Source: Rhodoferax sp. | GTDB lineage: Bacteria > Pseudomonadota > Gammaproteobacteria > Burkholderiales > Burkholderiaceae_C | Assembly: GCA_031417575.1 (NCBI GenBank) | Contig: JANOVW010000050.1 | Span: 1-51,457, forward strand | DNA: 51,457 nt | Direction: 5' to 3' | Shown here: positions 1 to 44,492 of the stretch, piece after piece | Position numbering within the stretch: position 1 is the stretch's first letter | Layout: each line of letters begins with the position of its first letter | The notes under the pieces: generated by a model | Told to the model about the DNA's origin: nothing | The model's input: the letters and a program-made list of their open reading frames with translations, nothing else | Databases searched by the model: none | Position numbers and translations under genes: made by a program

Positions 1-232
1 GCGCTGCCGCCGGGGTTTGCTTGAAAACGATCTCTTCATCGAGCGTTTTTTCAAACGGTTTGAGTCAAGTTTGACAGTAGCACAGGCCGGCGGACTAACC
101 CGTTTGATGGACTTGAGTGACAATGATTTGATGGACTTGCACCTGCGCCGCAAGGAACTCAAAGACCTTGAAGATGCGCCCCAAGACGAAGATGCGCAGG
201 CCGTATTGCAGATGTTGAGAATCCTGAAATAG
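1..232 (+). CDS. sdhE: FAD assembly factor SdhE (DUF339), 5'-truncated at window edge
   Basis: The frame is open from the window edge (..RCRRGLLENDLFIERFF..). This matches the SdhE RGxxEnDLxL..F motif. The gene lies directly upstream of gltA, as at the end of sdhCDAB-sdhE-gltA clusters. Confidence 0.8.
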   Translation, partial: RCRRGLLENDLFIERFFKRFESSLTVAQAGGLTRLMDLSDNDLMDLHLRRKELKDLEDAPQDEDAQAVLQMLRILK

Positions 233-11074: not shown

Positions 11075-12379
11075 CTAAACCAGCCCACTTGCCGCTTGGC
11101 GATAGGCGGCAGTGGCTGAGGTGGCATCGCCCCGCTGATCTGCCAGCCGGGCCAACGCCAACCAGGCTGGTCGTTCCAGAGTGGTTTTCGACAATTTGGG
11201 AACAGATTGGCGCAGCAGTTGCTGGGCCTTGCCCCAAAGCTGCAAATGCATGCAGGTGACGCCTGCCAGGTATTGCAACAGGGGATCGCCCGGCCGGTTC
11301 ATTTGAGCCGATTCGATCCGCGTCAACCAGGCGGCATCGGGTACACCACCCGTCATGGCAAAACCCCGTTCCAGCGACAACAACAAACCCGTTTTCTGAT
11401 CCATCGACATGGTTTCTGGCTGCGCACTCTTGGCCGCTGTCGTCAAAACCATTTGTTCCCAAATCGGCAACAACCATTGGCGGGACAAGGCGGCATCACC
11501 GCCGACATCGAGCAGGTGGTTGGCAGACGTAATCGCCAGGGCAGGATTCAACCGCTCCCGCTGTTCAAGTCGATTCCAGGCCGTTTGCAGTTGCGCAGCA
11601 TCACGCGTCGCCAGCAACAGTTCGGAGGTCAGACTCTGAATAATGGTGGTGCCCGTTCCAGCGGCAAACGCCCGGTGTTTGTCCAACAAGCGGGCTGTCT
11701 CCAGCGCCATTTCGGTCCGGCCGGCTTGCCTGGAGGCCTTGAGCCGAAGTCGAAGGGCAACCGTACGCCGAGCGGCACCTTGGGGCATTTCTCCCAGCCA
11801 GTGAAGCGCATCACCAGGCGCTCGGTCGTCCATAGCCCATCGCGCCGCACGCAAATGCACGCCTTCACGCTCCTCTTGCGCATTGCGCTGGTTGGAGCCT
11901 TCAAGTGCTTGTTTGAAATGGCCGGTTCGGCCCACTTTGTCCTGCAAGGCATGAGCGCTTTCGGCCGCCAATAAATGCGCGAGAGCCCGCAAACGCGCCC
12001 CCTGCCCCGACTTCTCCCCTGCTTGGTTCAGCTGTTCTTCATGGGTCAAGGCCAGCTCCGCTGACTTGCGGGCCCGAATGAAACGCCCTGCTGTCAGATG
12101 TGAAAGCGCTTCAAACAGGGCTGTAAACATGGCGCGCTCGCGCTGTGACGTGCGCCATCTGCGCGCCTGATGGGGAATCGCCAATAAGGCTGAAACGCCG
12201 CGCAGTGAGAAATGAATGAGTAAAAACGCAGCCACCGCTACAACAACAAACAAGTTGAGTGATAAATCAATGCGATGGGGCGGCCAGAACAGCGTGATCG
12301 TGCCCGGGTTGTTACCCGCAAACAGCGCCAAAGCAGCTGCCACGGCAAGCATCATCAAAATAGCCAGTGCGGTTCGCAT
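11075..12379 (-). CDS. hemY: HemY-like TPR membrane protein
   Basis: Two N-terminal TM helices plus TPR-like repeats. It is the last gene of a hemC-hemD-hemX-hemY array. Confidence 0.85.
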   Translation of the reverse strand: MRTALAILMMLAVAAALALFAGNNPGTITLFWPPHRIDLSLNLFVVVAVAAFLLIHFSLRGVSALLAIPHQARRWRTSQRERAMFTALFEALSHLTAGRFIRARKSAELALTHEEQLNQAGEKSGQGARLRALAHLLAAESAHALQDKVGRTGHFKQALEGSNQRNAQEEREGVHLRAARWAMDDRAPGDALHWLGEMPQGAARRTVALRLRLKASRQAGRTEMALETARLLDKHRAFAAGTGTTIIQSLTSELLLATRDAAQLQTAWNRLEQRERLNPALAITSANHLLDVGGDAALSRQWLLPIWEQMVLTTAAKSAQPETMSMDQKTGLLLSLERGFAMTGGVPDAAWLTRIESAQMNRPGDPLLQYLAGVTCMHLQLWGKAQQLLRQSVPKLSKTTLERPAWLALARLADQRGDATSATAAYRQAASGLV

Positions 12380-12395
12380 AACCCCGTCGAAGTAT

Positions 12396-13523
12396 TTAGC
12401 GACCCGCCGCCGCAGTAGTCAGCGCACCTAGCGTTTCATCGACTCGCGGCAATTCGAGCATACGCATCTGCGATTGCACCTGCTGCAGCAAGGCTGTAGC
12501 CACCTGTGTCTTGGGCGATTGCGGTGAGAAATAACGCCGCATTGAAGTCGCTACTGACGCAAGATCACCCCGCGAAGCGTCCAGTTGACGTGCCAAAAGG
12601 CCCAGGCGTGCATTGAGCAATTTCAGCTTCAGGTTTTCGCGCGCAAAAAAGGATTGTTCGGGCGACAAAATGGCTGCGTCCGGCACTTCGACCCGACTAA
12701 CGCGCAACAATCCACGCAACTCTGACTTCACCCGATCGATCACGATTTGCCAGCTAAAACCGGCATCGGCAGGCTGTTCAGTGCCTGCCTTGCCATCACC
12801 ACTTCCCTGTTTCACTTGTATCGGCGTACCGGCCGACCCGCCCACCGCATTGGCCAGGGGCAATTCGTCAACCAGTCGTATCAGTTCATCAAGTTTGACC
12901 AGCAAAGCCGGGGTGTCGGCCAACGAACTGGCTTGGATCCGGGCCAAATCCTTGTTGATCGCCCGCGCCAATGCAGACAGTCGCGGTTGGGCGGCCCGCT
13001 GGACCCGAAGGTCTGCCGATTTAAGAGCCGCCAGAAGCGGTTCGGCACTCCCTGTCATTTGGGCTTGCTGTTGCGCCAAGCGCACTGCTGACTCAATATC
13101 GACCACCAGATTTTCATCGCGAGAACGCGACAGACTTTGAATCAATTCGTCGAGCTGGCTGCGCTGCAGCGCCACTTCACTCAGCCTGGCATCGACCACC
13201 GCTACACGGGCAGCGGTTTCCCGGGCCAGTTCAGACGCCTGTCGCGCCAGTCCTCGTGCTTCCAGCGCTTGGCTGCCCGTTTCGGCGCTTTGTCTTGCCA
13301 ATTGTTCCTGAATATGGCTCAGCTTTTGCCACAAGAAAATCGCCAAGATCAGGGCTAAACAGGCACCCGCTGCCCCTAGGTACAGCACCCACAGTGGGGG
13401 CAATGATTTGCCAGTGCCAGCAAAAGCCGACACCTTCTCCAAGGCGTTCTGCGGTGGCTCCAGAACGCGGTTTGCCGCATCGTGCGGCTCATCTTGGGAT
13501 TTCAACGGCAATATACCGGTCAT
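12396..13523 (-). CDS. hemX: HemX-like membrane protein (often annotated as a uroporphyrinogen-III C-methyltransferase)
   Basis: One TM helix plus a coiled-coil-rich periplasmic part. Positioned between hemD and hemY, with an ATGA overlap to hemD. Confidence 0.82.
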   Translation of the reverse strand: MTGILPLKSQDEPHDAANRVLEPPQNALEKVSAFAGTGKSLPPLWVLYLGAAGACLALILAIFLWQKLSHIQEQLARQSAETGSQALEARGLARQASELARETAARVAVVDARLSEVALQRSQLDELIQSLSRSRDENLVVDIESAVRLAQQQAQMTGSAEPLLAALKSADLRVQRAAQPRLSALARAINKDLARIQASSLADTPALLVKLDELIRLVDELPLANAVGGSAGTPIQVKQGSGDGKAGTEQPADAGFSWQIVIDRVKSELRGLLRVSRVEVPDAAILSPEQSFFARENLKLKLLNARLGLLARQLDASRGDLASVATSMRRYFSPQSPKTQVATALLQQVQSQMRMLELPRVDETLGALTTAAAGR

Positions 13524-32180: not shown

Positions 32181-33002
32181 TCAGGCGCGGGGTTCGCCCT
32201 GGCGATTTACGGTGATGGTGGAGCCGGGTGGCGTTGTCATTTGCAGCCGGTGCTCCACGCCCCGAAAGCTGTAACTCACGTCATACAACTCAGGCCGCGC
32301 CTGGCTGGGCACTTCCCGGCAGCGCTGAACACTTTGGGTGGCCATGGGCTGGGAATATCCATCCCGGCCAACCTGGGCACCAATGGCGCCCCCGGCAATC
32401 GCACCACCCACAGTGGCCAGGTCATTGTTACGGCCACTCCCGACTTGGTGCCCCAGAATGCCGCCAATCAGCGCGCCCACTACTGCACCCGGAACATTGG
32501 AGTTGTATGGTGATGGTGATGGCGCCGAAACCTGCTCGCGTTCCACCCAGCAGCGTTGTTCCGGCGGGCCAACCACGGCACGCACCGAGGTGACGTCGGC
32601 TTCAAAAAGGCGTTCATTGCGGCGGCGGCGGTTGTCATACACCGGGGCTGCTGGCGGTGCATATCGGTCGCTGTCAACCCTGGCGTTGCCATTCACCGCC
32701 CGCATGGATGAAACCCGGTCATTCAGGCCCATGGCCGCCAATGAAGGGTAGCGCCCTGGGCGCAACACCACACACTGGCCATGGAAATCCGCGTGCTCGC
32801 ATACTTCCCAGCGGTTCTGCAAAACAATCATGGAAGAAGAGCGGTCGTTAAAGCCGTAACTGCCCAGGTTTCGGACGTTCTGACCGCTGTTGAAGGAACG
32901 GCCCTGAAAATTCGGCTCTTCATAAAAGGTAACCTGGGCGCTAGCCTGGCCCGCCAGGGCGATGGCGGCACAGGCCAGGGCACCGCGCAGAAGTGTTTTC
33001 AT
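32181..33002 (-). CDS. beta/gamma-crystallin domain + glycine-zipper (Rick_17kDa-like) outer-envelope protein
   Basis: Signal peptide at ATG 33002. Two Greek-key motifs (FYEEPNFQGRS..; VCEHADFHGQC..RVSS). C-terminal GAVVGALIGGILGHQVGSG..GGAIAGGAIGAQVG. Confidence 0.8.
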   Translation of the reverse strand: MKTLLRGALACAAIALAGQASAQVTFYEEPNFQGRSFNSGQNVRNLGSYGFNDRSSSMIVLQNRWEVCEHADFHGQCVVLRPGRYPSLAAMGLNDRVSSMRAVNGNARVDSDRYAPPAAPVYDNRRRRNERLFEADVTSVRAVVGPPEQRCWVEREQVSAPSPSPYNSNVPGAVVGALIGGILGHQVGSGRNNDLATVGGAIAGGAIGAQVGRDGYSQPMATQSVQRCREVPSQARPELYDVSYSFRGVEHRLQMTTPPGSTITVNRQGEPRA

Positions 33003-33036
33003 GGGAATCCTTGAAGACGGTTGATAAACATCGCCC

Positions 33037-33042
33037 AGTATC
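33037..33042 (-). promoter_or_regulatory. -10-like box GATACT (crystallin/glycine-zipper operon)
   Basis: Lies exactly 45 nt from operator site 1. It is followed after 10 nt by ATCAAC, as at two other island promoters. Confidence 0.4.
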
Positions 33043-33087
33043 AGGATTACCCGTCGCCACGACCAGCAGACAAGCGCCTGATGGGCC

Positions 33088-33103
33088 GTAGTAGCTGTCC
33101 TAC
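33088..33103. promoter_or_regulatory. 7-2-7 operator site 1 (GTAGTAG-CT-GTCCTAC)
   Basis: Member of the GTCCTAC heptad family. The variant is identical to site 5 (GTAGTAG-NT-GTCCTACACA). Confidence 0.5.
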
Positions 33104-33118
33104 ACACGGATGGCTCAC

Positions 33119-33140
33119 CGCGTAGGACGTGTCCTACGCG
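33119..33140. promoter_or_regulatory. 7-2-7 operator site 2, perfect 10-2-10 palindrome CGCGTAGGAC-GT-GTCCTACGCG
   Basis: Perfect inverted repeat. Lies 45 nt upstream of CATACT (33183-33188) and ~106 nt upstream of the orphan receiver ATG. Confidence 0.55.
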
Positions 33141-33182
33141 CACGCGGGTAAGAAACCGATTTCGCGCGGCAGCGTTCATGGG

Positions 33183-33188
33183 CATACT
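33183..33188 (+). promoter_or_regulatory. -10-like box CATACT (orphan receiver gene)
   Basis: Lies exactly 45 nt downstream of the heptad pair of site 2. Confidence 0.4.
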
Positions 33189-33245
33189 GTCTGCATGCAT
33201 TCCGTGCCACGTTTTCTGCTGGGCGGCCCCCTCAACACCTATCCC

Positions 33246-33650
33246 ATGCTCAAGACTTACCTCGTTGAAGACAGCCCGGTGATCCGCGAAAGCCTGATCA
33301 TCACCTTGGAAGAGCTCAGCGAAGTCAAGGTAATCGGTACGGCCGAAGACGAACACAACGCTGTGGCGTGGCTGTCAGACCCGGGTAATGTGGTGGATCT
33401 GGTGATCATCGACATTTTTCTCAAGGGCGGTTCCGGGCTGGGTGTGCTCAGAAGCATCCACCAGTTGGCCCTTCGGTACCATTTGGTTGTGCTCACCAAC
33501 TACGCTACTGAAGATATGCGCCAACGATGCCTTGCGTTAGGTGCCAGCCGGGTATTTGACAAATCGAATGACATCGACGCCTTGATTGCCTACTGTGACA
33601 AACTGTCAGGCGACAACCCTGACACCACAAGGCCAGGTTGGCTTCAATGA
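33246..33650 (+). CDS. single-domain (CheY-like) response-regulator receiver
   Basis: Has the VEDS acidic pocket, the IIDIFL phospho-Asp, and LTNY and FDKS motifs. No output domain. Confidence 0.85.
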   Translation: MLKTYLVEDSPVIRESLIITLEELSEVKVIGTAEDEHNAVAWLSDPGNVVDLVIIDIFLKGGSGLGVLRSIHQLALRYHLVVLTNYATEDMRQRCLALGASRVFDKSNDIDALIAYCDKLSGDNPDTTRPGWLQ

Positions 33651-33689: not shown

Positions 33690-34325
33690 TTACTGAATCA
33701 GCCCGTTCTTCATGGCGTAATACGTCAAATCGCTGTTGGATTCGAGTTTTGTCTTCTCCAGCACACGGGTGCGGTACGTACTGACAGTTTTGACACTGAG
33801 TGACATGCTCACCGCCATATGCCCAATCGTTTCACCTTTCGCCAGCCGCAAGAACACCTGGAATTCCCGCTCCGAGAGCAGTTCGTGGGGCAGTTTGTCA
33901 GCGCCGCCGCTGACCATCGTGTCGGCTATTTGCTCAGCCACCCCAGCAGTGATGTATTTGCGGCCCCGGTGCACGGTGCGTATGGCGGCCACGATTTCCT
34001 GGGGGTCGCAGTCTTTGTTCAGGTAGCCGCTGGCTCCCTGGCGCAGCAAGGTGGTGGCGTAATGCGCTTCGGGGAAACCGCTCAAGATCAGCACCGGCAA
34101 ATCAGGTGCCCGCGCCTTGATGGCGGCCAGCGCGTCAACACCACTTTGGTCGGGCATCGAGATGTCCATCACGATCACGTCCACGTCGCCTTTGCGCACA
34201 ATATCGACCGCCTGGCGGCCCGTAGTGGCCTCTGCCACCACCTGAAAATCAATCTGGTCGGAAAAAAATTGCCGCAGGCCCGCACGCACCATGGCGTGGT
34301 CGTCAACGATGGCAATGCGGATCAT
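33690..34325 (-). CDS. NarL/FixJ-family response regulator (receiver + LuxR/GerE HTH)
   Basis: IAIVDDH.., VIVMDISMPD, and a C-terminal LSEREFQVFLRLAKGETIGHMAVSMSLSVKTVSTYR HTH. Confidence 0.92.
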   Translation of the reverse strand: MIRIAIVDDHAMVRAGLRQFFSDQIDFQVVAEATTGRQAVDIVRKGDVDVIVMDISMPDQSGVDALAAIKARAPDLPVLILSGFPEAHYATTLLRQGASGYLNKDCDPQEIVAAIRTVHRGRKYITAGVAEQIADTMVSGGADKLPHELLSEREFQVFLRLAKGETIGHMAVSMSLSVKTVSTYRTRVLEKTKLESNSDLTYYAMKNGLIQ

Positions 34326-34381
34326 GAAACAAAGCGGTTAGTCATGCCGAATGATTACACACTTCTTGGGCAGGCCTGAAA

Positions 34382-35728
34382 ATGGATTTGGTCAACACCC
34401 TCAAAACCAACCGCGTTGTGGTGCCAATGGCATTTTTGGCGGCACTGTTGATGTTGCTGTTGAGTGAAACCGCGTATTGGCGGGCGCAAAACGCCTTGAA
34501 CAGCTTGGTGACCGTGCAGAATGACCGAAGTAGCATTCTGCAACTGACGGAAAGCGTTCTCAAGGTCGAGTCGGGGCAGCTCGGCTATATCCTCACGGGC
34601 GATTTGCGCTTGCTTGAAAACCAGAACGAAAACAAAGCCGCCATTGCCGAAATTTTTCCGAAATTGGCGACCACTTTTGCCGATAACCCTGAGTTGCTGG
34701 CGGCACTGAACAAAATGCGATTGACGGTTGGCAACCGGCAAGCAACCCTGGCGGAAGGTATACGGCTCAAAAGCGAGCGTGGTTCACAGGCGTCGACAGA
34801 TGCCATCCTGCAAACCATTCAATCCATGCCCTTAGCCCAGTCACTGGACGACGAATTGATGGCGCTGGAACTACCTGGGCGCGTGCAGCGACGCGAAGCA
34901 GTCTACAGCGCGCTGGTGCTGAATCGTTTGGGCGTGGCGTTGCTCACAACCATCAGCCTTATGGCCCTGCTGCTCTACCTGCGGCAAACCCATGTGCTCG
35001 GACTGCAGCAAAAGGAGCTCAAGCAGATCGAACAACAAGTGCGGGTCGACCTGGAAGCCGAAGTTGCCCTGCGAACAGCTGAGCTCACCGACTTATCACG
35101 ATATCTGCTGAATGCCCGCGAAGACGAGCGCAACCGCCTGGCCCGCAACCTGCACGATGATCTGGGCGCTTTGTTGACCTCCGCCAAACTGGACGCGGCC
35201 CGTATCAAGGCGCGGCTGACCAAGACAGCACCCGATGAGCTCGAGTTGCTGAGCCACCTGGTGGCCTCGCTCAACGCCTGCGTTGCAATGGGGCGCAACA
35301 TTATTGAAAACCTGCGCCCTTCTGCGCTGAGTAACCTGGGCCTGGTGTCAACACTGGAAATACTGACCCGCGAGTTTACGGAAAACACCGGCGTTCCGGT
35401 GCAATGCCAACTCAGCCCGGTGGCATTGAGCCCCAACGCCGAACTCATGCTTTACCGCGTGGTGCAAGAGGCACTGACCAACATTTCCAAATACGCCAAC
35501 GCCACGCAGGTCTGGGTTAGCCTGGGTAGCCAAAATGGCCAGGTCAGCCTGGCAGTCCGCGACAACGGGCAAGGTTTCAATACCATAACCAAGGTTGGCA
35601 CAGCCTATGGCTTGCTGGGCATGCGCTTTCGGGTGGAGGCCGAAGGGGGCCACCTGACGGTAGTTTCCCACCCCGGCAGCGGTACACAAATTCTGGCCAC
35701 GCTGAAGGTAAGCACAGCCCAGCCCTGA
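34382..35728 (+). CDS. CHASE3-domain sensor histidine kinase (HisKA_3 type)
   Basis: TM helix, CHASE3-like periplasmic domain, second TM helix, H-box ARNLHDDLGALL, and an HATPase domain. Divergent from the NarL-type regulator. Confidence 0.88.
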   Translation: MDLVNTLKTNRVVVPMAFLAALLMLLLSETAYWRAQNALNSLVTVQNDRSSILQLTESVLKVESGQLGYILTGDLRLLENQNENKAAIAEIFPKLATTFADNPELLAALNKMRLTVGNRQATLAEGIRLKSERGSQASTDAILQTIQSMPLAQSLDDELMALELPGRVQRREAVYSALVLNRLGVALLTTISLMALLLYLRQTHVLGLQQKELKQIEQQVRVDLEAEVALRTAELTDLSRYLLNAREDERNRLARNLHDDLGALLTSAKLDAARIKARLTKTAPDELELLSHLVASLNACVAMGRNIIENLRPSALSNLGLVSTLEILTREFTENTGVPVQCQLSPVALSPNAELMLYRVVQEALTNISKYANATQVWVSLGSQNGQVSLAVRDNGQGFNTITKVGTAYGLLGMRFRVEAEGGHLTVVSHPGSGTQILATLKVSTAQP

Positions 35729-35775: not shown

Positions 35776-35791
35776 GTCGGCCAAGTCCTAC
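35776..35791. promoter_or_regulatory. 7-2-7 operator site 3 (GTCGGCC-AA-GTCCTAC)
   Basis: The right heptad is exact and the left arm matches 5/7. Lies upstream of the DUF883 operon, with GATACTGGG at 35860. Confidence 0.4.
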
Positions 35792-35859
35792 AGCTGCGCG
35801 TCGGCTTCACCCACACATTTGCAGCCATCACACTGATGGATGCGCATCGCAGTCCCGCA

Positions 35860-35865
35860 GATACT
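35860..35865 (+). promoter_or_regulatory. -10-like box GATACT (DUF883 operon)
   Basis: GATACTGGG-N..-ATCAA uses the same phasing as the two glycine-zipper promoters. Confidence 0.35.
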
Positions 35866-35957
35866 GGGTTCACCCCATCAAAGCGGTCTCTGTACTCAAG
35901 CTTTCAGCCAGACTGCAATTCAATGGCCAAACCCGTCTTTATCCTGAAGGAAATCAT

Positions 35958-36338
35958 ATGTCTACCACCCCCATCGCACAAACCATCGACAGCCTCGCCG
36001 ACAAGGCAACCGGCTCGGCTGACAACGCCATGTTTGCGACCCAGCACGCGGCCAATGGAGCCTTGAACATGCTGGCCGACAAGGTATTGGAAATTCGCAA
36101 TCAAGCGGAGCCAATGCTGGCAAACGCCAATGGTCAAGCCAAAGATTATTTGCATCAGGGCATTGATTCCGTCCGCCATGCATCCCAACAACTCGCTGGG
36201 GCCGCTTTACATGCACGCGACGGCGCAACCAGCTATGTGAAGGAAGAGCCGCTCAAGGCCATACTGATCGCAGCGGCAACAGGTGCCGCCCTGATGGCAT
36301 TGGTCAGCCTGATCAGCCAGTCGCACCGCAAGGCTTAA
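35958..36338 (+). CDS. DUF883 (ElaB/YqjD/YgaM-family) membrane-anchored stress protein
   Basis: Ala/Gln-rich helical body, then EEPLKAILIAAATGAALMALV as a C-terminal anchor. GAAGGA RBS. Confidence 0.88.
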   Translation: MSTTPIAQTIDSLADKATGSADNAMFATQHAANGALNMLADKVLEIRNQAEPMLANANGQAKDYLHQGIDSVRHASQQLAGAALHARDGATSYVKEEPLKAILIAAATGAALMALVSLISQSHRKA

Positions 36339-36344
36339 CCCCCA

Positions 36345-36776
36345 GTGCCACTGGTTCTGCCATTTTTAACCCTTTTGCCACCTCCAATGCCATCCCAACA
36401 ATCACCGGCTTTGGTTGCCATGCTTCAACTACTGGCAAGTCACCCAGGCCTGTTGGTGGATCACGCGCAGGCTTATGCAGGGCTTCTCGCCAGCGAAGCG
36501 CAAATGGCCGCCCAACGCTGCAAGCGCCAGACCATTTTGCTGGTGGTGGCGATTGCCAGCTTCTGCGTAGCCGCGGTGTTGCTTGGTGTTGCCTGGATGT
36601 TATTTGCCTTGGGCACACCACTCTGGGCCTTGTTGTCCGCACCACTGCCCGCCTTGCTGGTGGGTGGTGGTTGCCTGCTCATGGCAAGCCGGCCGATGCC
36701 CGCGCCACCTTTTTCCGAGATTAAACGCCAGTGGGCAGACGACCTGGCCATGTTGCAGGAAACAATGACACCATGA
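36345..36776 (+). CDS. YqjE-like / holin-X family membrane protein
   Basis: Two TM helices and a position after DUF883, as in E. coli yqjD-yqjE-yqjK. The start is GTG 36345 or ATG 36387. Confidence 0.7.
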   Translation: MPLVLPFLTLLPPPMPSQQSPALVAMLQLLASHPGLLVDHAQAYAGLLASEAQMAAQRCKRQTILLVVAIASFCVAAVLLGVAWMLFALGTPLWALLSAPLPALLVGGGCLLMASRPMPAPPFSEIKRQWADDLAMLQETMTP

Positions 36777-37255
36777 CCGACCCGAGCACTGCCGCCAGTC
36801 TGGCCAACGAACGTCTGGCCCGTTCGCGCGACAGCCTGCGTCAGGCGATCCGCGCCGACAGGGTGCCGGCAACTCCCGATGTGGGCACGCCAAACTGGTT
36901 CAAGGGGTTCGATGGCCTGAAGGCCCTGCCGGGTTTTGATGCCCTGCTGACAGCACTGCGCATTGGGTGGCTGCAGCCGCTGCGACAGGCGGGCGTGACG
37001 TTGTCCGATGTGGCAACACCATTGCTCAAGCCGTTGGCGCAACGTTACCCCCTGGCTTTGGCCTTGGGTGGCGTCGCCATCGGTGCGATATTGGTGAAAC
37101 TCAAACCCTGGCGCTGGCTACCAGCTGCAGCCATCGTATCGAGCCTGGCACCTCAAGCCCTAGGCAAAATAGTGAGCGCTCTCCCCGTGCAATCGTGGTT
37201 GGTCTCGGCGGTGCGCTCCATCAGGGTCAAGAACCAGAACAAACCGCGGGTCTGA
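36773..37255 (+). CDS. YqjK-like protein
   Basis: ATGA-coupled to the previous gene. Has the ERLARSRDSLRQAI motif and a C-terminal hydrophobic segment. Confidence 0.65.
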   Translation: MTDPSTAASLANERLARSRDSLRQAIRADRVPATPDVGTPNWFKGFDGLKALPGFDALLTALRIGWLQPLRQAGVTLSDVATPLLKPLAQRYPLALALGGVAIGAILVKLKPWRWLPAAAIVSSLAPQALGKIVSALPVQSWLVSAVRSIRVKNQNKPRV

Positions 37256-37264
37256 GACCCGCCC

Positions 37265-38236
37265 TCACTTCACCTCCAAAAAAGCACAGCCCGAGCCCTT
37301 GCGTTTGGCTTGGTACATGGCCCGATCAGCCTGTTTGAGCAACACTGCACCGGTGTGGCCATCATCAGGCCACACCGCGATGCCAATGCTGGGGCGAACC
37401 ACCAAAGCCAGTTCACCGACAGGCAGGTCTGCTACTGCCTCAAAAATTTTGCGGGCTTGCTGGTAGACCTGGTCGCGGCCCGGAAACCCCGTCAGGAAGC
37501 AGCCAAATTCATCACCCCCCAAGCGACCCACCATATCGTTGGTTCGAACCGCTTGTTTAATCCGTCCGGCAACGATTTTTAGCACTTCATCGCCCTTGTC
37601 ATGACCATAGGTGTCGTTGATTTTCTTGAAACCGTCCAGATCCAGAAAAAACACAGCGAGTGCCGGGCGCGTTGGCGCCGGTTGTTCCTGCTGCTGCGCC
37701 TGTTCCATTGCCTGATCCAGGCATTGGCAAAAATGGTTGCGGTTGGGCAACGTCGTCAACCCATCATGGCGCGCCAAGTGGTGCGAACGCCGCTCCTGCG
37801 CACGGGTGCCCTGCAACTCAATGTGTTTGCGCGCCAAAGCAGCCTGCGCCAGTGACACTTCCTGTTTGAGATGTTGGCGCTTGGCCAATTCCTTGGAAAG
37901 TGATAGGTGCAGTTGATCCAGCGCGGCCACACAGTCCACCATGCCGGCCTGGATTTGATGAATACTTTGCTGGCGCATGGGCTCTGGCAAATCAGCCAGC
38001 GCATCGCCCGCCGTTGACAGCAGTCGGGCCTTGATGGCGTTCAGCAACAGGTCCCAGTCAGTCACGGGGATGTCTCCAGCCACACCCGATAAAGGCTGAA
38101 GGCGCAGGCGGGCACCACCGTTGCCATCGTACATGACAGCTTCTGCTCTTGGCTTGATGCCGTGGCTTGCGCCATTGGGCAAGGCCTGCAGGCCTGGGCC
38201 GGACTGCATGCTCTTCAGCATCTTGATGCTGCCCAA
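37265..38236 (-). CDS. GGDEF diguanylate cyclase with coiled-coil N-terminal domain
   Basis: GGDEFG active site and an RxxD-like region. The start is uncertain (TTG 38236, ATG 38221 or ATG 38209). The longest-ORF start lies 1 nt after the DUF3309 stop codon. Confidence 0.88.
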   Translation of the reverse strand: MGSIKMLKSMQSGPGLQALPNGASHGIKPRAEAVMYDGNGGARLRLQPLSGVAGDIPVTDWDLLLNAIKARLLSTAGDALADLPEPMRQQSIHQIQAGMVDCVAALDQLHLSLSKELAKRQHLKQEVSLAQAALARKHIELQGTRAQERRSHHLARHDGLTTLPNRNHFCQCLDQAMEQAQQQEQPAPTRPALAVFFLDLDGFKKINDTYGHDKGDEVLKIVAGRIKQAVRTNDMVGRLGGDEFGCFLTGFPGRDQVYQQARKIFEAVADLPVGELALVVRPSIGIAVWPDDGHTGAVLLKQADRAMYQAKRKGSGCAFLEVK

Positions 38237-38237
38237 C

Positions 38238-38396
38238 CTAGATACGACCCATCACCACCAAGATGATGAGGATGATCACCACCAAGCCCACACCTCCAGA
38301 GGGACCGTACCCCCATTTGCTGCTATGCGGCCAGGTGGGCAAAACGCCGATCAGCAACAGGATCAGGACAATTAAAAACAGGGTTCCGAGGCTCAT
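38238..38396 (-). CDS. DUF3309 small membrane protein
   Basis: MSLGTLFLIVLILLLIGVLPTWPHS..YGPSGGVGLVVIILIILVV. AAGGAG RBS. Confidence 0.8.
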   Translation of the reverse strand: MSLGTLFLIVLILLLIGVLPTWPHSSKWGYGPSGGVGLVVIILIILVVMGRI

Positions 38397-38652
38397 GATG
38401 TTCTCCTTGGTTGGATCAAAACGTGAACTGAAGCCCGCCGTTTTGGCGACATGACTCACTCCACACGATGATCGTAAACAAGCCCCAGCACGCATTCTGT
38501 TCGATACCGAACACAATAAAAAAAAGAGAGAAAAGCGGTTTGACAGTGATTGTTTGGAACCACAATCATCAACGGCAACCTGTGTGCGCCAACGCACAGC
38601 CCACCCACGCCTGCGCACAGCAAAATGAGCCCCCCTGATTTGGAGAAACACG

Positions 38653-39786
38653 ATGGAAGCCGCCCCTGAAAGCCCCGTACCACCGCCCGCTGCTTTGGCC
38701 GATCAGCCCCTTGAGCACCTGGTGAAAGGCACGCCACAGTTCACGCGCAACAAGGCACTTTTCTGGCTGCTGGTGGCCGCGTCGTTGAGCCTGGCCTGGA
38801 TACTGTTGCCGTTCTACGCACCGATCATGTGGGCGTTTACCTTTGCGCTGATGTTTGCGCCTTTGAATCAATGGTTGCTCAAACGCATGAAGGGCGAAGC
38901 CAATGCTGCAGCTGTGCTGACCCTGCTGATCGTGATCGCGGTGGTGATCTTCCCGCTGGTACTGGTGGTATTGGCAATAGCTGGCGACATTGCTGAATTG
39001 AATCGCCGATTGATGACTGGCGAATTGAACCCCCTGCGGTATTTGCACGCCTTGTTCGACAACCTGCCACAGTGGACGCGTTTACTGCTGGAACGCCTGG
39101 GCCTGAAAGATTTCGACAGTGTGGAGCGCCGTGGCACGGCTGCCATGGCCCAGGCTAGTCAGTACGTTGGAGGGCAAGCCCTGAGCATCGGCTTGGACGC
39201 ATTTGATGTGGTGATCGGAATGTTCATTGCGCTCTATCTGGCCTTTTTCATGCTGCGTGACGGTGAACAGCTGGCGCGAACCTTGCACGACGCGTTTCCG
39301 CTGGCACCTGGTTACAAATACCAACTACGCAACAAATTTGCCACGGTGGTTCGGGCCACCATCAAGGGCAACTTCCTGATCGCCGGTATCCAGGGCGCAC
39401 TGGGGGGATTGGCGTTCTGGTTTCTGGGTATTCAGGGTGCGCTTTCGTGGGCGGTGTTGATGGCATTGTTATCGTTGCTGCCCGCTATTGGAGCCGGTTT
39501 GGTATGGGTGCCGGTCGCCTTGTATTTTTTTATCACGGGTGCGATATGGCAGAGCGTGGCGCTGACGGCCTTCGGCGTGCTGGTGATAGGCCTGGTCGAC
39601 AACATTTTGCGGCCCGCCTTGGTGGGCCGAGACACCCGTCTGCCTGACTACCTGGTGATGATCAGCACATTGGGTGGCATGGCTGTTTTCGGCATCAATG
39701 GTTTTGTGTTGGGGCCGGTGATCGCAGCACTGTTCATAGCCGTGTGGCATATCCATGGCACCACCCGCACCGACACCACGCCTTGA
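38653..39786 (+). CDS. AI-2E family transporter (PerM/YhhT-like permease)
   Basis: Eight predicted TM helices, with LLPAIGAGLVWVP and DNILRP motifs. Confidence 0.88.
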   Translation: MEAAPESPVPPPAALADQPLEHLVKGTPQFTRNKALFWLLVAASLSLAWILLPFYAPIMWAFTFALMFAPLNQWLLKRMKGEANAAAVLTLLIVIAVVIFPLVLVVLAIAGDIAELNRRLMTGELNPLRYLHALFDNLPQWTRLLLERLGLKDFDSVERRGTAAMAQASQYVGGQALSIGLDAFDVVIGMFIALYLAFFMLRDGEQLARTLHDAFPLAPGYKYQLRNKFATVVRATIKGNFLIAGIQGALGGLAFWFLGIQGALSWAVLMALLSLLPAIGAGLVWVPVALYFFITGAIWQSVALTAFGVLVIGLVDNILRPALVGRDTRLPDYLVMISTLGGMAVFGINGFVLGPVIAALFIAVWHIHGTTRTDTTP

Positions 39787-39811
39787 GCCCAACAGCCGGC
39801 CCTACACGGCT

Positions 39812-40504
39812 TCAAGCCACCATTGCGCCCGATTGGCCACTGCGCTGTTGGAGCATCTGGCGATCGAGCACATCTATCTGGCCCCGGCTGTAGCGGATGG
39901 CGCCAGCCCGTTGCAGCTTTAATGCTGCTGCAGTCACGCCTTCACGCCGCACCCCCAGCAGATCAGCCAGCAGTTCTTGTGTCATGGTCAGGGCGGCAGA
40001 CTCCAAACGCTCCAGGCCCATCAGCAAACGGCGGCACATCAACTGATCGATCGACTGGTAGCGGTTGCACGCAGCAGTTTGTGCCACCTGCGCCATTAAG
40101 GCCTGGGCATACACCAACACGATGCCCGGGACTGGGCCTTGGCGGTTCATGGCATCTTTGACACACTGCACACGCAAGCGGTAAGCCTGCCCGGCGCTTT
40201 GTACCACGGCATCACTCGGGGTGGAGTTGCCCCCCATGAAGACGGAGACACCCACCACCCCATCTTTACCGACGACTGCAATTTCGGAAGAATCGCCGTC
40301 TTGCGTGCGGTACAACAACGAGACGATCGCTGTGGTCGGGAAGTAGACATAAGCTGGTGTGCGTCCTGATTCGCTCAAGACCTGGCCCAGCCGCAGATTG
40401 ACCGGTTCGAGTTCTGGTAACCATTGCTGCCATTCGACATCTGGCAAACTGGCCAGCAGCAAGTTATGGCGTGGATCGGAGCACGGGTCGGTGTTTGTAT
40501 TCAT
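39812..40504 (-). CDS. Crp/Fnr-family transcriptional regulator (no Fe-S Cys cluster)
   Basis: cNMP-binding fold plus a C-terminal HTH (QELLADLLGVRREGVTAAALKLQ). Confidence 0.88.
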   Translation of the reverse strand: MNTNTDPCSDPRHNLLLASLPDVEWQQWLPELEPVNLRLGQVLSESGRTPAYVYFPTTAIVSLLYRTQDGDSSEIAVVGKDGVVGVSVFMGGNSTPSDAVVQSAGQAYRLRVQCVKDAMNRQGPVPGIVLVYAQALMAQVAQTAACNRYQSIDQLMCRRLLMGLERLESAALTMTQELLADLLGVRREGVTAAALKLQRAGAIRYSRGQIDVLDRQMLQQRSGQSGAMVA

Positions 40505-40729
40505 GAAACTCTCGCATGGCTGAATGAGTCCTCATGATCCGGGCGCGTTGAATTTGGCGCCATCAGCCGCAGCCGTTTTAAGTTGTCAGTGCGTTCCTAC
40601 GCTGTTGAGCCGGGCTGCCGGCAAACGACAGTATTCTTTTTTGACGCCACCGCAACACTCACATGCGCAGCAGGTGGGCGTCATCTCGCGAACCGCTTGC
40701 ATAGCGTTTGCAAGCGCTTTGTGCGGCAT

Positions 40730-40745
40730 CGCGGCGTTGTCCTAC
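40730..40745. promoter_or_regulatory. operator site 4 (exact right heptad TGTCCTACATC, weak left arm)
   Basis: Lies 111 nt upstream of the BON gene ATG. A near-heptad GTTCCTAC lies at 40593-40600. Confidence 0.35.
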
Positions 40746-40855
40746 ATCGAGCCGTAACGCCAACTGATAACGCAGGGCAGACTTGCCTCATAAAGTCAAT
40801 CCAGATTCGACGCAACCCGCATCCAGCACCATCGAAGCGTCACAGGAGAACCATC

Positions 40856-41197
40856 ATGCGCATTTACACCACGTGGGGAACCATTGCCGCCGCAATTGCC
40901 ACTACGCTTGTCGTCGCTATTGCCTTGATGGCCTTGACCGCCTGCGTGGTTAGTCCTTCCCGCGAAGCGCAAAGCATTCTGATGGACGATGCCGGCATCA
41001 CGCAGCAGGTCAAATCCCGTTTTGTGGACAGCCCGCAAGTCGATGGTCGCGCTATCCACGTTGAAACATTGCACGGAACCGTTTTACTGACCGGTGTTGC
41101 CAGCACCCCACTCGATAAGGCCGTCGCCAGTGAAATTGCGCTGGGTGTTGCCGGTGTACGGTTGGTGCAAAACGAAATCACGATACGTCAACGATGA
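40856..41197 (+). CDS. BON-domain lipoprotein
   Basis: ..LTAC lipobox and a single BON domain. AGGAGA RBS. Confidence 0.88.
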   Translation: MRIYTTWGTIAAAIATTLVVAIALMALTACVVSPSREAQSILMDDAGITQQVKSRFVDSPQVDGRAIHVETLHGTVLLTGVASTPLDKAVASEIALGVAGVRLVQNEITIRQR

Positions 41198-41260
41198 GCC
41201 CGTGATGGTCCGGTGCAAACCGGGCTGGCATTTTTCAATCTTCAATCAAAGGAACTTCAT

Positions 41261-41488
41261 ATGAACTGGGATCAAATTCAAGGCAACTGGAAACAATCGG
41301 TTGGCAAAGTCAAAGAACAGTGGGGACAACTGACGGATGACGACCTGGATGTCGTGGCTGGCCGCCGCGACCAATTGGCCGGCAAGATCCAGGAGCGTTA
41401 TGGCATTGCCAAAGACGACGCAGAAAAGCAGTTGGCCGAGTGGCAACGCAAAGCCTCTGACACCTGGTTTCCAAAAACCAAAAACTGA
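41261..41488 (+). CDS. CsbD-family stress protein
   Basis: MNWDQIQGNWKQ..GKVKEQWGQLTDDDLD..GRRDQLAGKIQERYG. Confidence 0.92.
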   Translation: MNWDQIQGNWKQSVGKVKEQWGQLTDDDLDVVAGRRDQLAGKIQERYGIAKDDAEKQLAEWQRKASDTWFPKTKN

Positions 41489-41517
41489 CCCCACCAGACT
41501 GGATTGGGGGCCTCGGC

Positions 41518-42240
41518 ATGAACTGCTCCACGCTTTTACCTGCACCGAGCGCCTGTTTGGGTTGCCGCTTGCGCGAAATGTGTCTGCCAGCGGGCATGAC
41601 CGACGCGCAGGTGGAGCAGTTCAGCCAAGGCGTGACCAGCAAGCGCCGCATCAAGGTGGGGCAGGCCCTCTACCAACAAGGTGACACATTTCACACGATT
41701 TACGCTATTCGCAGTGGTACGCTGAAATCCAGCCTGATGCTGGCGGATAGCCGTGAACAGGTTAGCGGTTTCCACATCGCGGGCGAACAGGTCGGTCTGG
41801 ACGGCATAGCCCACGCCAGGCATGCCACCACAGCCATCGCGCTGGAAGACACCGAAGTTTGCGCCATCACCTATGCCGGCCTCGTGCCACTATTGCTTTC
41901 CATGGGTCGCGAACACGTACTGAGCCGACTGATGAGCCATGAAATTGTGCGGGATCAGCGTCTTTTGTTGATGTTGGGCAGCATGAACGCGGCGCAGCGG
42001 CTGGCAGGTTTTTTGATCAACCTGGCAGGTCGGCTCAAAGGCTTGGGGTATGCCTCCGGCGAATTTCATTTGCGCATGACACGAGCCGACATTGGCAGCC
42101 TGTTATGCATGAAGATTGAAACCGTTAGCCGGATGTTTTCCGCCTTTCAAAAACAACGTTTGCTGAAGGTTGACAAGCGGCATATCCAGATATTGGATGC
42201 GCAAGGCCTGGCCAGCGCCTTTGCGGCACCCCGAACCTGA
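41518..42240 (+). CDS. fnr: FNR/Anr-type oxygen-sensing Crp/Fnr regulator
   Basis: The N-terminal C13-x2-C16-x5-C22 spacing, plus a central Cys (EDTEVC), matches the FNR [4Fe-4S] ligand spacing. C-terminal HTH (RADIGSLLCMKIETVSRMFSAF). Confidence 0.85.
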   Translation: MNCSTLLPAPSACLGCRLREMCLPAGMTDAQVEQFSQGVTSKRRIKVGQALYQQGDTFHTIYAIRSGTLKSSLMLADSREQVSGFHIAGEQVGLDGIAHARHATTAIALEDTEVCAITYAGLVPLLLSMGREHVLSRLMSHEIVRDQRLLLMLGSMNAAQRLAGFLINLAGRLKGLGYASGEFHLRMTRADIGSLLCMKIETVSRMFSAFQKQRLLKVDKRHIQILDAQGLASAFAAPRT

Positions 42241-42252
42241 ACGGCGGTCCGC

Positions 42253-43236
42253 GTGAAGTTCAAGGATTACTACGCTGCCCTGGGCGTGGCCCGCGATGCT
42301 GATCTGGAGCAGATCAAAAAGGCCTACCGAAAACTGGCACGCCAACATCACCCGGACATGTCCAAAGCGGCTGGTGCAGAGGCCCGTTTCAAAGACGTGG
42401 CTGAAGCGTATGCCACCTTAAAGGACCCGGAAAAACGCGCTGCTTATGATGGCTTGGGCAGCCACCCGGAAGGCCAGGAATTTGAGCCACCCCACGCAGA
42501 CCGCTCGCGTGGGTTTGACAGCAACAACTTTGACGACATGGATCTGGCTGACTTATTGGCGTCGCTAGGCCGTGGCCACCGCCAGTCTGGCCGAGCCCCT
42601 GGCCCCATGCCGGGGCCAGATTTTGAAACCGGCTTGCAGGTCACACTGGAAGATGCCCACCGGGGTACGACCGTTCACCTGACTCTGCAAACCAGCGACG
42701 GCGAACGTACCCTGGAAGTCACGGTGCCAGCGGGCGTAACAGAAGGCCAAAAACTCAGGCTGCGCGGCAAAGGCGGCAAAGGCCATGCGGGTGGTGCCGA
42801 TGGCGACATCTACTTGCACATCACCCTGCAACCGCATGCCGTGTTCCGCACCGACCACCATGATCTGTATTTTGATTTGGCGTTGACCCCTTGGGAGGCT
42901 GCACTCGGCACAGACGTGCAAGTGGCCACGTTAGACCAACCCGTTATGCTGACTGTTCCCCCGTTGACGCCCTCTGGCCGCAAGTTGCGCCTGCGCGGGC
43001 GTGGCCTGCCCAACCCCCGTGCAGGTGCAGTGGGCGTACCGGGTGCGGCGGCTTCACCGGATTCAAAAAGGCATGGCGATTTGTACGCAGTTGTTCGAAT
43101 CGACATGCCAACCAGCCTGAACGCCGCACAACGCAAGCTTTTTGAAGAGATTGCTTCCTCATCGACCTTCAACCCCAGGGCGAACCCCGCAGCCCCGCAA
43201 CCCAAAGAGAAATCCCATGACACCCCAACTGACTGA
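42253..43236 (+). CDS. cbpA: curved-DNA-binding protein CbpA (DnaJ homologue)
   Basis: J domain (KDYYAALGV..HHPD) plus DnaJ C-terminal domains, with no zinc finger. GTG start. Confidence 0.9.
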   Translation: MKFKDYYAALGVARDADLEQIKKAYRKLARQHHPDMSKAAGAEARFKDVAEAYATLKDPEKRAAYDGLGSHPEGQEFEPPHADRSRGFDSNNFDDMDLADLLASLGRGHRQSGRAPGPMPGPDFETGLQVTLEDAHRGTTVHLTLQTSDGERTLEVTVPAGVTEGQKLRLRGKGGKGHAGGADGDIYLHITLQPHAVFRTDHHDLYFDLALTPWEAALGTDVQVATLDQPVMLTVPPLTPSGRKLRLRGRGLPNPRAGAVGVPGAAASPDSKRHGDLYAVVRIDMPTSLNAAQRKLFEEIASSSTFNPRANPAAPQPKEKSHDTPTD

Positions 43237-43606
43237 TTGGATTTGGCTGGACATGCGGCAAACCGTGTCGCTGGCGGAGTTGTCGCAGGCCTGCGGCTTG
43301 TCTTCGGAGGAACTGGGGGAACTGATGGACTACGGCGCACTGGCACCCTCACAACCGCTGCAACCACAACGTCGCTCACCCGATGAGGTGGCATCGCAGT
43401 TGCCGCATCAATTCCGTGCTGACTGGATCACGCGGCTACGCACTGCCGCCGGTTTGCGCCTGCACTATGACCTGGATCTGTTCAGCATGGGCATGATGCT
43501 GGGATACCTCACGCGCATTGAAGACCTGGAGCGACAACTGGCCTCGCTGCTGGCGCAGTCACCCAGGGCGGCGCGACCCAGTCCCGGCCAAGGATATGAA
43601 AACTGA
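43217..43606 (+). CDS. cbpM: chaperone modulatory protein CbpM (MerR-like)
   Basis: Overlaps the cbpA 3' end by 20 nt. Has the ..VSLAELSQACGLSSEELGELMDYG motif. Confidence 0.82.
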   Translation: MTPQLTDWIWLDMRQTVSLAELSQACGLSSEELGELMDYGALAPSQPLQPQRRSPDEVASQLPHQFRADWITRLRTAAGLRLHYDLDLFSMGMMLGYLTRIEDLERQLASLLAQSPRAARPSPGQGYEN

Positions 43607-43613
43607 ACTGAAA

Positions 43614-43631
43614 ATGGCCCGAACGGGCCAT
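43614..43631 (-). terminator. intrinsic terminator of the OsmB-like gene
   Basis: On the minus strand: atggccc-gttc-gggccat followed by ttttcagttcagtttt. Confidence 0.6.
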
Positions 43632-43692
43632 GGCAGAACCGCTGCTGCGACAGCGTAGTCGCCAAGCTTTCGCCTGACGGAGCTGCCACAGT

Positions 43693-43911
43693 CTATCGCT
43701 GACGGTTCACTTCGCTGCCGATCACACCACCGACTGCGGCGCCTGCTCCGGTGCACAAGATGCCACCACACAGCAGGTTGCCGGCTACGCCGCCGATCAC
43801 GGCGCCGGTGGCAATGCCTTGTTCCTGACGGGTCATGCCTGAGCAGCCCGACAGCAACACAAGTGCCACGGCTGCGATGGCCAGACTGGATTGGGTATAG
43901 ATTGATTTCAT
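43693..43911 (-). CDS. OsmB-like glycine-zipper lipoprotein
   Basis: LLSGCS lipobox, then GAVIGGVAGN..GAGAAVGGVIGSEV. Confidence 0.85.
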   Translation of the reverse strand: MKSIYTQSSLAIAAVALVLLSGCSGMTRQEQGIATGAVIGGVAGNLLCGGILCTGAGAAVGGVIGSEVNRQR

Positions 43912-43950
43912 GATGAAGGCTCCTGTTGAAAAAGTTGATGAGGAGCCTTC

Positions 43951-43956
43951 AGTATG
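43951..43956 (-). promoter_or_regulatory. -10-like box CATACT (OsmB-like gene)
   Basis: Lies exactly 45 nt from operator site 5. The TGTCTGCT and ATCAAC blocks sit at the same offsets as upstream of the crystallin gene. Confidence 0.4.
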
Positions 43957-44001
43957 GCCAGCCCTCAAGGCGCCGGGTAGCAGACATCGCCGCTGACTGC
44001 G

Positions 44002-44017
44002 GTAGTAGATGTCCTAC
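44002..44017. promoter_or_regulatory. 7-2-7 operator site 5 (GTAGTAG-AT-GTCCTAC)
   Basis: Same variant and same 45-nt phasing as site 1. Confidence 0.5.
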
Positions 44018-44083
44018 ACAAAGGGTGTTGTTGGTTCAGTCAAATCGCAGGGCCTTGCCAATCGGCTCTCTGGTTGCAACACC

Positions 44084-44099
44084 GTAAGCCATGTCCTAC
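44084..44099. promoter_or_regulatory. 7-2-7 operator site 6 (GTAAGCC-AT-GTCCTAC)
   Basis: The right heptad is exact and the left arm matches 5/7. Lies 35 nt upstream of GATACA (44135-44140) and 120 nt upstream of the DUF1328 ATG. Confidence 0.45.
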
Positions 44100-44218
44100 G
44101 CCAATGCGTGTCGTTGGCTCACGGTGATCGGGCTGATACACCTATGGTTTGCCAACCCTGTTGCAGCCAAACTTGCTGCATGGCGGTGGCTTTTCACCGC
44201 CTTCAGCAGGAGTTCAAC

Positions 44219-44383
44219 ATGCTTCACTACACCGTTGTATTTTTTGTCATCGCCTTGATCGCCGCCCTTTTCGGGTTTGGTGGCATCGCCGCAGGCGCGG
44301 TCGAGATCGGCAAGATTCTTTTCACTGTTTTCGCGGTTCTGGCCGTCGTCAGTTTTCTGGTCGGCCTGGTTCGTAAAAACTGA
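44219..44383 (+). CDS. DUF1328 (UPF0391/YtjA-like) small membrane protein
   Basis: [27 protein letters not shown].. AGGAG RBS. Confidence 0.88.
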
Positions 44384-44492
44384 CCCTTATTTTCATGGTG
44401 TCAGCACTTGCATGAGCAGACACCTTGCACGGTTTTTTTGTTCCCCTTCCTCGTCCCCTTCCCTTTCACAACTATTTTCACCGGAGATATTC

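Follow-up and report, generated by a model that had tools for sequence, protein, structure and literature searches.

We analysed a stretch of 51,457 nucleotides (nt) from Rhodoferax sp. (contig JANOVW010000050.1 of assembly GCA_031417575.1), hereafter the window, which holds two divergent control regions, one at 33003-33245 between a crystallin-like gene and a single-domain receiver gene, and one at 43912-44218 between an osmB-like lipoprotein gene and a DUF1328 gene. Sequence comparison suggests, with a probability that we put at about 75%, that both regions are made of two back-to-back operator-promoter units of one regulon, most likely under the NarL-type response regulator encoded at 33690-34325, which the adjacent CHASE3/HisKA_3 kinase would phosphorylate. 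The putative operator, termed site I, is a 7-2-7 inverted repeat at a rigid distance from a -10-like hexamer; motif and spacing are conserved before many unrelated genes and are linked to the two-component cluster.

The first-pass annotation of this DNA had reported that the minus-strand promoters of the two regions carry identical blocks at identical offsets, and coordinates, alignment score and block statistics all bear this out. On the minus strand, the promoter of the crystallin-like gene (33003-33103) aligns with that of the osmB-like gene (43912-44017) in one ungapped register from GTAGGAC downwards. Their common layout is GTAGGAC-A(G/T)-CTACTAC, 15 nt, TGTCTGCT, 22 nt, (G/C)ATACTG, 10 nt, ATCAAC, and the ATG follows after a further 17 or 22 nt. 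Only 34 and 39 nt separate the hexamer from the ATG, and Shine-Dalgarno sequences are present. Ungapped identity of the two promoters is 51/88, and formal local alignment gave a score of 39, compared with 14.5 +/- 2.4 in shuffled sequences, a value that none of 2000 dinucleotide shuffles reached. Moreover, five exact blocks of >=6 nt were observed in one register, while the maximum among ~200,000 random pairs of window segments was two. Identity was 35/37 within the blocks and 13/47 (28%) beyond them, where 25% is expected at random. Thus, the likeness is limited to discrete elements, for which a shared function is expected and not a recent copy. The last block, ATCAAC, falls in the predicted early transcribed region of the osmB-like gene (43934-43939, minus strand), and no conservation was found at its position in other genomes among the related loci compared. 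ATCAA(C/A) was also seen exactly 10 nt past (G/C)ATACTG in three window promoters (33020-33025, 43934-43939 and 35877-35882).

Site I can be written as GTAGGAC-NN-GTCCTAC, with the core TAGGA-N4-TCCTA. When up to three mismatches were allowed, the 7-2-7 pattern was found at five sites in the window, compared with 0.56 expected, and all five are intergenic and stand beside stress or regulator genes. The heptamer GTCCTAC or its complement has seven copies in the window, all intergenic and between 33.0 and 44.1 kb, each followed by a purine and then, in 6/7, by C. The TGTCCTACGC sites that had been placed 109-120 nt upstream of the plus-strand genes do exist, at 33130-33139 and 44092-44101, that is 106 and 117 nt before the ATGs, and they are the promoter-proximal halves of 7-2-7 repeats at 33122-33137 and 44084-44099. 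In 1.18 Mb of related loci we counted 73 such repeats with at most two mismatches, where ~4 were expected. Plain heptamer counts in the same loci (192 copies of GTCCTAC/GTAGGAC, 143 expected from composition) were uninformative by themselves; the information lies in the 7-2-7 arrangement and in its spacing alone. The 16-mer of the osmB-like site I recurs in identical copies in at least 17 other loci, and site I of the receiver promoter is conserved in ~70 loci.

Spacing was then tabulated for the hexamer [CG]A[TC]ACT downstream of 238 7-2-7 sites (at most three mismatches) in 82 related loci. The hexamer lay 45 nt past the site in 76 cases, 46 nt in six and 68 nt in 22, and any other offset was seen 0-4 times each, so that two classes, 45 and 68, differ by 23 bp. 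Class 45 comprises the promoters of receiver genes (61), crystallin genes (22), osmB-like lipoproteins (7) and a Lys/Ala/Cys-rich secreted protein of 183 amino acids (aa) (7), with CsbD and small membrane peptides as further targets; class 68 comprises those of DUF1328 (35) and DUF883 (at least 8) genes. The layout of the DUF1328 promoter in the window is the same as in those 35 other loci, and the 68-nt spacing of the DUF883-like operon is kept in the related loci L001-L003. For the two control regions this means that the collinearity proposed in the first-pass annotation holds on the minus side and fails on the plus side, where the receiver hexamer lies at 45 nt and the DUF1328 hexamer at 68 nt. 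Its idea of one bipartite cassette used twice was likewise half right: each divergent region contains two independent operator-promoter units, one per direction, and the plus-strand units belong to different spacing classes.

Elements between site I and the hexamer are phased as well. The consensus of non-receiver class-45 promoters reads GTAGGACAtctaCTAC, N6, tggcGGcgc, n, GTCcGCT, N22, gAtACTgg; that of receiver promoters reads tGTAGGA-NNN-gTCcgAC, with G at +11, ccgaTgg at +19..25 and ggCAnACTcg; and that of class 68 reads GTCgGCg-nc-gTCCTAC, with CCCGAC at +18..23, gCCTATCG at +41..48 and cAcACT. Half-site-like blocks recur at 23-bp steps (+17..23 and +40..46) in these three promoter classes, their partner halves being weak or absent, and the end of the last block always precedes the hexamer by 22 nt; TGTCTGCT corresponds to this proximal block. 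In the osmB-like promoter its GTCTGCT lies at about -41..-35, and the offset of this word has high information content in 44 non-receiver class-45 promoters. GGCTCAC and CACCTAT of the DUF1328 promoter match the class-68 blocks CCCGAC and gCCTATCG at equal offsets.

The module with identical spacing stands before at least nine unrelated gene families (receiver, crystallin, osmB-like, 183-aa secreted, CsbD, 47-aa peptide, WXXGXW, FecR/DUF6600, BrkB, DUF1328 and DUF883) across dozens of genomes and metagenome contigs from Comamonadaceae/Sphaerotilaceae, and it clusters around conserved kinase, response regulator and receiver genes. Common regulation, one of two explanations that had been offered for the shared blocks, is strongly supported by this comparison, and the shared module is predicted to be a conserved cis-regulatory cassette and not a duplication.

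Two checks were made blind. In the first, position weight matrices (PWMs) were trained on other genomes only, with the window excluded. Five window promoters scored 36-42 bits (Table 1), whereas shuffled windows reached at most 6.9 bits with the class-45 matrix and -4.6 bits with the class-68 matrix. A weaker class-45 candidate before a Crp-family gene scored 17.5 bits. The promoter of the BON gene (GTCCTAC at 40739, TAAAGT 45 nt later) fits the layout by eye, but its PWM score was not above the null, and it was kept as a weak candidate only. In the second check, metagenomes were scanned with a pattern of site I and GTCYGCT only, the -10-like hexamer being left out. There were 51 matches on 49 contigs, and the hexamer was found exactly 22 nt further in 44 of the 50 readable matches and shifted by one base in four more. 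The genes downstream encode crystallin, the 183-aa protein, osmB-like lipoproteins, 47-aa peptides, a WXXGXW protein, a FecR/DUF6600 protein and a BrkB/YihY protein. A gene of the cluster (receiver, regulator or kinase) is present as well on about 15 of the 49 contigs, whereas several contigs of 6-15 kb have none; hence the regulon is dispersed there just as in the window.

Kinase, regulator and receiver genes are syntenic among relatives, and with the sites; the receiver adjoins the regulator in 80/85 sequences, and crystallin, DUF1328 and DUF883 genes are frequent neighbours of the cluster. The receiver gene is the most consistently site-bearing target, and the single-domain receiver is probably a feedback component. 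Regulator homologues were found in more than 120 clusters at 83-99% identity, with a nearly invariant recognition helix in which one position varies conservatively (V/I). A genome scan placed them in Burkholderiales, the closest being Rhodoferax metagenome-assembled genomes (~90%), with Caldimonas, Rubrivivax, Methylibium, Rhizobacter, Polaromonas and the isolate Rhodoferax ferrireducens BE313 as other carriers, and the window sequence itself is present in freshwater-sediment metagenomes. The locus of R. ferrireducens BE313 (L079) has promoters of both classes, before its receiver, crystallin, 183-aa-protein and DUF1328 genes. One 2.2-kb contig labelled 'Geobacteraceae bacterium' (L047, CAJPFF010000044.1) has a regulator of 83% identity and the same receiver promoter; probably this is contamination or mis-binning in that assembly. 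The two control regions of the window enclose a ~9-kb 'stress island' (35900-44400), and a recognisable site stands at only some of its genes.

Based on these data, we propose the following mechanism. The adjacent CHASE3/HisKA_3 kinase would phosphorylate the regulator, and the site-bearing single-domain receiver would give feedback. A regulator dimer would bind the strong 7-2-7 inverted repeat (core TAGGA-N4-TCCTA). With the hexamer placed at -12..-7, the centre of this repeat would precede the start site by ~65.5 bp in class 45 and by ~88.5 bp in class 68, and the proximal block would lie at -41..-35. Weaker half-site-like elements would follow every 23 bp on the same helix face, and the last of them (GTCYGCT, GyCCGAY or GCCTAT), ending at about -35, would aid RNA polymerase at a promoter with a usable -10 element ((C/G)A(T/C)ACT) and without a -35 consensus. 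A consensus scan found no sigma-70 -35/-10 pair in either control region, as expected for activator-dependent promoters. That the regulator is the binder, that it activates and does not repress, where transcription starts, and that additional dimers occupy the phased elements are steps that we infer.

This arrangement resembles that of known NarL-family systems in several respects. Two inverted heptamers with a 2-bp spacer, bound by a dimer with a GerE-type helix-turn-helix, and a HisKA_3-class kinase are also found with NarL of Escherichia coli, but the NarL heptamer is TACYYMT, compared with GTAGGAC here, our regulator scores 112.9 bits against an NCBIfam NarL cut-off of 250, and there is no link to nitrate/nitrite genes. 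The closest solved structures (Protein Data Bank) to the regulator are those of NarL, DevR, DesR, VraR and EvgA. Recognition helices of the regulator and EvgA (KTVSTYRTRVLEK vs KTVSTYKSRLMEK) match in 9/13 core residues, the other four being conservative, and the EvgA-controlled emrK-evgA intergenic region has the words TTCTTAC, GTAGGA and GTAAGAA, which resemble the half-site GTCCTAC. In contrast, overall identity is 28%, the score is 101.7 bits against the NCBIfam EvgA cut-off of 251, EvgS is a hybrid kinase, and the half-sites of the published EvgA box seemingly stand in the opposite orientation.

Several public sources label the regulator UvrY. The UvrY/GacA/SirA group does give the best NCBIfam score and has the same domain architecture, but the score is 176.7 bits against an equivalog cut-off of 280 bits for UvrY/GacA, and the label is probably mistaken; NCBIfam gave no equivalog model at cut-off for regulator, kinase or receiver. 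Instead of a hybrid kinase of the BarA/GacS type, the partner here is a CHASE3/HisKA_3 kinase, protein-coding stress genes and not Csr/Rsm RNAs are the targets (Rfam found no CsrB/Rsm RNA in the window), and the GacA box differs from the motif described here.

The best-studied parallel, which is one of site layout, is with the promoters of BvgA, a NarL-family regulator of Bordetella. BvgA binds as head-to-head dimers every 22 bp, and at PfhaB its sites are centred at -88.5, -66.5 and -44.5, the strong one furthest upstream and the weakest abutting a poor -35, with TAAGAAATTTCCTA as the primary site (PMC7250471, PMC9708447). Inverted heptads stand head to head in both systems, TAAGAAATTTCCTA and the site core here share a 14-bp TAGGA-N4-TCCTA frame, and in both the putative or known strong site is furthest upstream. 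The weaker BvgA sites, phased at two helical turns, may have their counterpart here in the half-site-like blocks, multi-dimer binding in our system being a prediction. The last predicted site would abut a non-consensus -35, as in the BvgA-activated promoters Pptx, Pfim3 and PfhaB. For class 68, centres are predicted at -88.5, -65.5 and -42.5, and for class 45 at -65.5 and -42.5; the phasing is 23 bp compared with 22 bp for BvgA. The systems also differ in kinase, a BvgS type there and a non-hybrid CHASE3/HisKA_3 kinase here, an architecture that argues against BvgA/BvgS orthology. Moreover, virulence factors are the targets in Bordetella, whereas small envelope and stress proteins are the targets in the environmental Comamonadaceae/Sphaerotilaceae hosts.

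An alternative is that the cassette is real but is bound by another factor, either a Crp/Fnr-family regulator of the island (39812-40504 or 41518-42240) or an unlinked protein, and that the two-component genes are mere members of the regulon. Two Crp-family genes do lie inside the island, relatives carry several beside Gly-zipper genes, and one of the two in the island may itself carry a site. We nevertheless consider this unlikely. A 16-bp 7-2-7 inverted repeat has the geometry of NarL/GerE sites, and not the 5-4-5 or 5-6-5 geometry of FNR/CRP sites; the sites track the response-regulator cluster in at least 80 loci, whatever other regulators stand nearby; and the recognition helix of the regulator is nearly that of EvgA, while the half-site resembles words in EvgA and BvgA target DNA.

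Less probable again is that GTCYGCT and CATACT are the -35 and -10 elements of an alternative sigma factor (extracytoplasmic function or sigma-S-like), with the 7-2-7 repeat as an accessory element. The gene content (OsmB-like, DUF1328, DUF883, CsbD, BON) resembles sigma-S/general-stress regulons, and a study of sigma-S-dependent small proteins in Salmonella reportedly names DUF1328 and CsbD proteins. CATACT is one base off TATACT, the form favoured by sigma-S. The hexamer (C/G)A(T/C)ACT keeps A-11, C-8 and T-7 but not T-12. However, the gap from GTCYGCT to the hexamer is 22 nt, beyond the 16-19 nt of sigma-70-family promoters. Moreover, the hexamer is retained in receiver and class-68 promoters although their sequences at -41..-35 differ, and the strictest constraint is the distance of 45 or 68 nt between the 7-2-7 site and the hexamer. 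Recruitment of a sigma-S holoenzyme as the polymerase is still conceivable and would be compatible with control by the NarL-type regulator. Finally, five identical blocks at identical offsets in one genome might also be left by recent duplication, the second region being a copied control region or small mobile repeat without shared regulatory meaning, but this is very improbable, as likeness beyond the functional blocks does not exceed the random level, neither the flanks nor the coding regions are related, and the same blocks, alone conserved, stand before orthologous and unrelated genes in many genera.

Some points count against control by the NarL-type regulator through phased dimer sites. 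The class-68 distal half (GTCGGCG) fits a direct repeat of the GTCnGC type about as well as an inverted GTAGGAC half. Left halves of the downstream proposed sites are poorly conserved, and each phased element could be just a half-site or a contact for another factor. The counts include many orthologous promoters and are therefore not independent; the helix of the regulator is without variation and so offers no covariation with the motif; and the hexamer was assigned as a -10 element solely by its sequence and position. With regard to RNA, soil metatranscriptome contigs on the Rhodoferax ferrireducens locus allowed no start sites to be derived, and the window sequence was in no RNA run searched.

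Apart from this weighing, we observed that the distal half of class-68 site I (e.g. 35776-35782, and in L001-L003) is a conserved cTGTCgGCg. The 183-aa secreted target (12350-13000 in locus L079, and homologues) consists of repeated Lys/Ala/Asp units with Cys and is without a Pfam family. In metatranscriptome contigs of the R. ferrireducens locus its gene is expressed, with the highest coverage of the locus in soil RNA, and these contigs skip 76-260 nt inside the gene, consistent with internal repeats.

Table 1. Positions of the genes and of the predicted promoter elements in the window (genes were identified in Pfam and NCBIfam scans; site I scores are PWM scores; offsets are counted from site I)
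Feature	Position	Strand	Details
Secreted beta/gamma-crystallin + glycine-zipper protein	32181-33002	-	Pfam; regulated gene (predicted)
Single-domain receiver	33246-33650	+	Pfam Response_reg only
NarL/LuxR-type response regulator (REC + GerE)	33690-34325	-	Pfam Response_reg 8.8e-30, GerE 5.1e-11
CHASE3/HisKA_3/HATPase_c kinase	34382-35728	+	Pfam; presumed cognate kinase; without receiver or Hpt domains
DUF883-like protein	35958-36338	+	First gene of small operon
GGDEF protein	37265-38236	-	
DUF3309	38238-38396	-	
AI-2E family transporter	38653-39786	+	
Crp-family regulator	39812-40504	-	
BON-domain protein	40856-41197	+	
CsbD	41261-41488	+	
Crp-family regulator	41518-42240	+	
DnaJ-like protein	42253-43236	+	
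osmB-like glycine-zipper lipoprotein, 72 aa	43693-43911	-	Pfam Rick_17kDa_Anti/Gly-zipper; regulated gene (predicted)
DUF1328 small membrane protein, 54 aa	44219-44383	+	Pfam PF07043
Site I block, shared	33088-33103 and 44002-44017	-	Exact-block comparison
TGTCTGCT block, shared	33065-33072 and 43979-43986	-	Exact-block comparison
(G/C)ATACTG block, shared	33036-33042 and 43950-43956	-	Exact-block comparison
ATCAAC block, shared	33020-33025 and 43934-43939	-	Exact-block comparison
Crystallin site I	33088-33103	-	GTAGGAC-AG-CTACTAC; 2 mismatches; 39.2 bits
Crystallin half-site-like GTCTGCT	33065-33071	-	
Crystallin -10-like GATACT	33037-33042	-	Class 45
Receiver site I	33122-33137	+	GTAGGAC-GT-GTCCTAC, perfect palindrome; 0 mismatches; 39.2 bits; class 45
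Receiver AACCGAT	33154-33160	+	+17..23
Receiver -10-like CATACT	33183-33188	+	45 nt past site I
DUF883-like operon site	35776-35791	+	GTCGGCC-AA-GTCCTAC; 2 mismatches; 42.4 bits; class 68
DUF883-like operon -10-like GATACT	35860-35865	+	Class-68 promoter 35776-35865
Crp-family gene (39812-40504), weaker class-45 candidate	40534-40600	-	Site GTAGGAACGCACTGAC at 40585-40600; GGCTGAT at +17..23; 17.5 bits (null maximum 6.9)
Crp-family gene candidate, hexamer GATCAT	40534-40539	-	Within 40534-40600
osmB-like site I	44002-44017	-	GTAGGAC-AT-CTACTAC; 2 mismatches; 41.9 bits
osmB-like half-site-like GTCTGCT	43979-43985	-	Within TGTCTGCT; 23 bp past proximal half of site I; end 22 nt before hexamer
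osmB-like -10-like CATACT	43951-43956	-	45 nt past site I
DUF1328 site I	44084-44099	+	GTAAGCC-AT-GTCCTAC; 2 mismatches; 36.5 bits (class-68 PWM); class 68
DUF1328 phased half-site-like GGCTCAC	44116-44122	+	+17..23
DUF1328 phased half-site-like CACCTAT	44139-44145	+	+40..46
DUF1328 -10-like CAAACT	44168-44173	+	68 nt past site I

Other features of these loci are listed here as observations. For the osmB-like protein, NCBIfam OsmB is the best match, under its cut-off. An open reading frame (ORF) of 186 aa (33819-34379, plus strand) lies antisense to the response regulator, has no Pfam match and is most likely a shadow ORF. The predicted DUF1328 leader has a perfect 7-bp stem, GGCGGTG/CACCGCC, with a 6-nt loop (44182-44201), just 5' of the Shine-Dalgarno sequence and without a T-run. 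In the predicted receiver leader, a few bases past the -10-like hexamer, a weak terminator-like hairpin of five pairs with a T-rich tail (33193-33216) could be due to chance or could be an attenuator. A shared leader RNA was ruled out as an explanation of the module, Rfam having found no family across the whole window.

NarL-family regulon operators and multi-site promoters are well known as a kind, and the module described here joins them as a new member, widely conserved and unusually clean in its geometry; our literature search found no prior description of this system or regulon. As a more tentative extension, which we hold to be rather doubtful, the kinase, NarL-type regulator and receiver might form the master switch of an envelope/general-stress regulon (OsmB-like, DUF1328, DUF883, CsbD, BON, crystallin/Gly-zipper and small secreted proteins) across Comamonadaceae and Sphaerotilaceae, taking over much of the role of enterobacterial sigma-S, and the two geometries (-65.5 and -88.5) might be BvgA-like affinity classes for graded or temporally ordered expression.

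Through the module, an uncharacterised two-component system becomes accessible at the level of sequence, one that is 83-99% identical in abundant freshwater, sediment and soil Burkholderiales. Now available are a defined operator, two strict promoter geometries and an initial set of target genes, and the name 'UvrY' for the regulator, a likely over-annotation, is corrected. With these elements, the regulon becomes predictable in any genome of the clade, and the two classes offer a clean case for testing the effect of operator distance (45 or 68 nt) on promoter response. Moreover, the module suggests that a BvgA-style multi-dimer promoter architecture is used beyond the control of virulence in pathogens.

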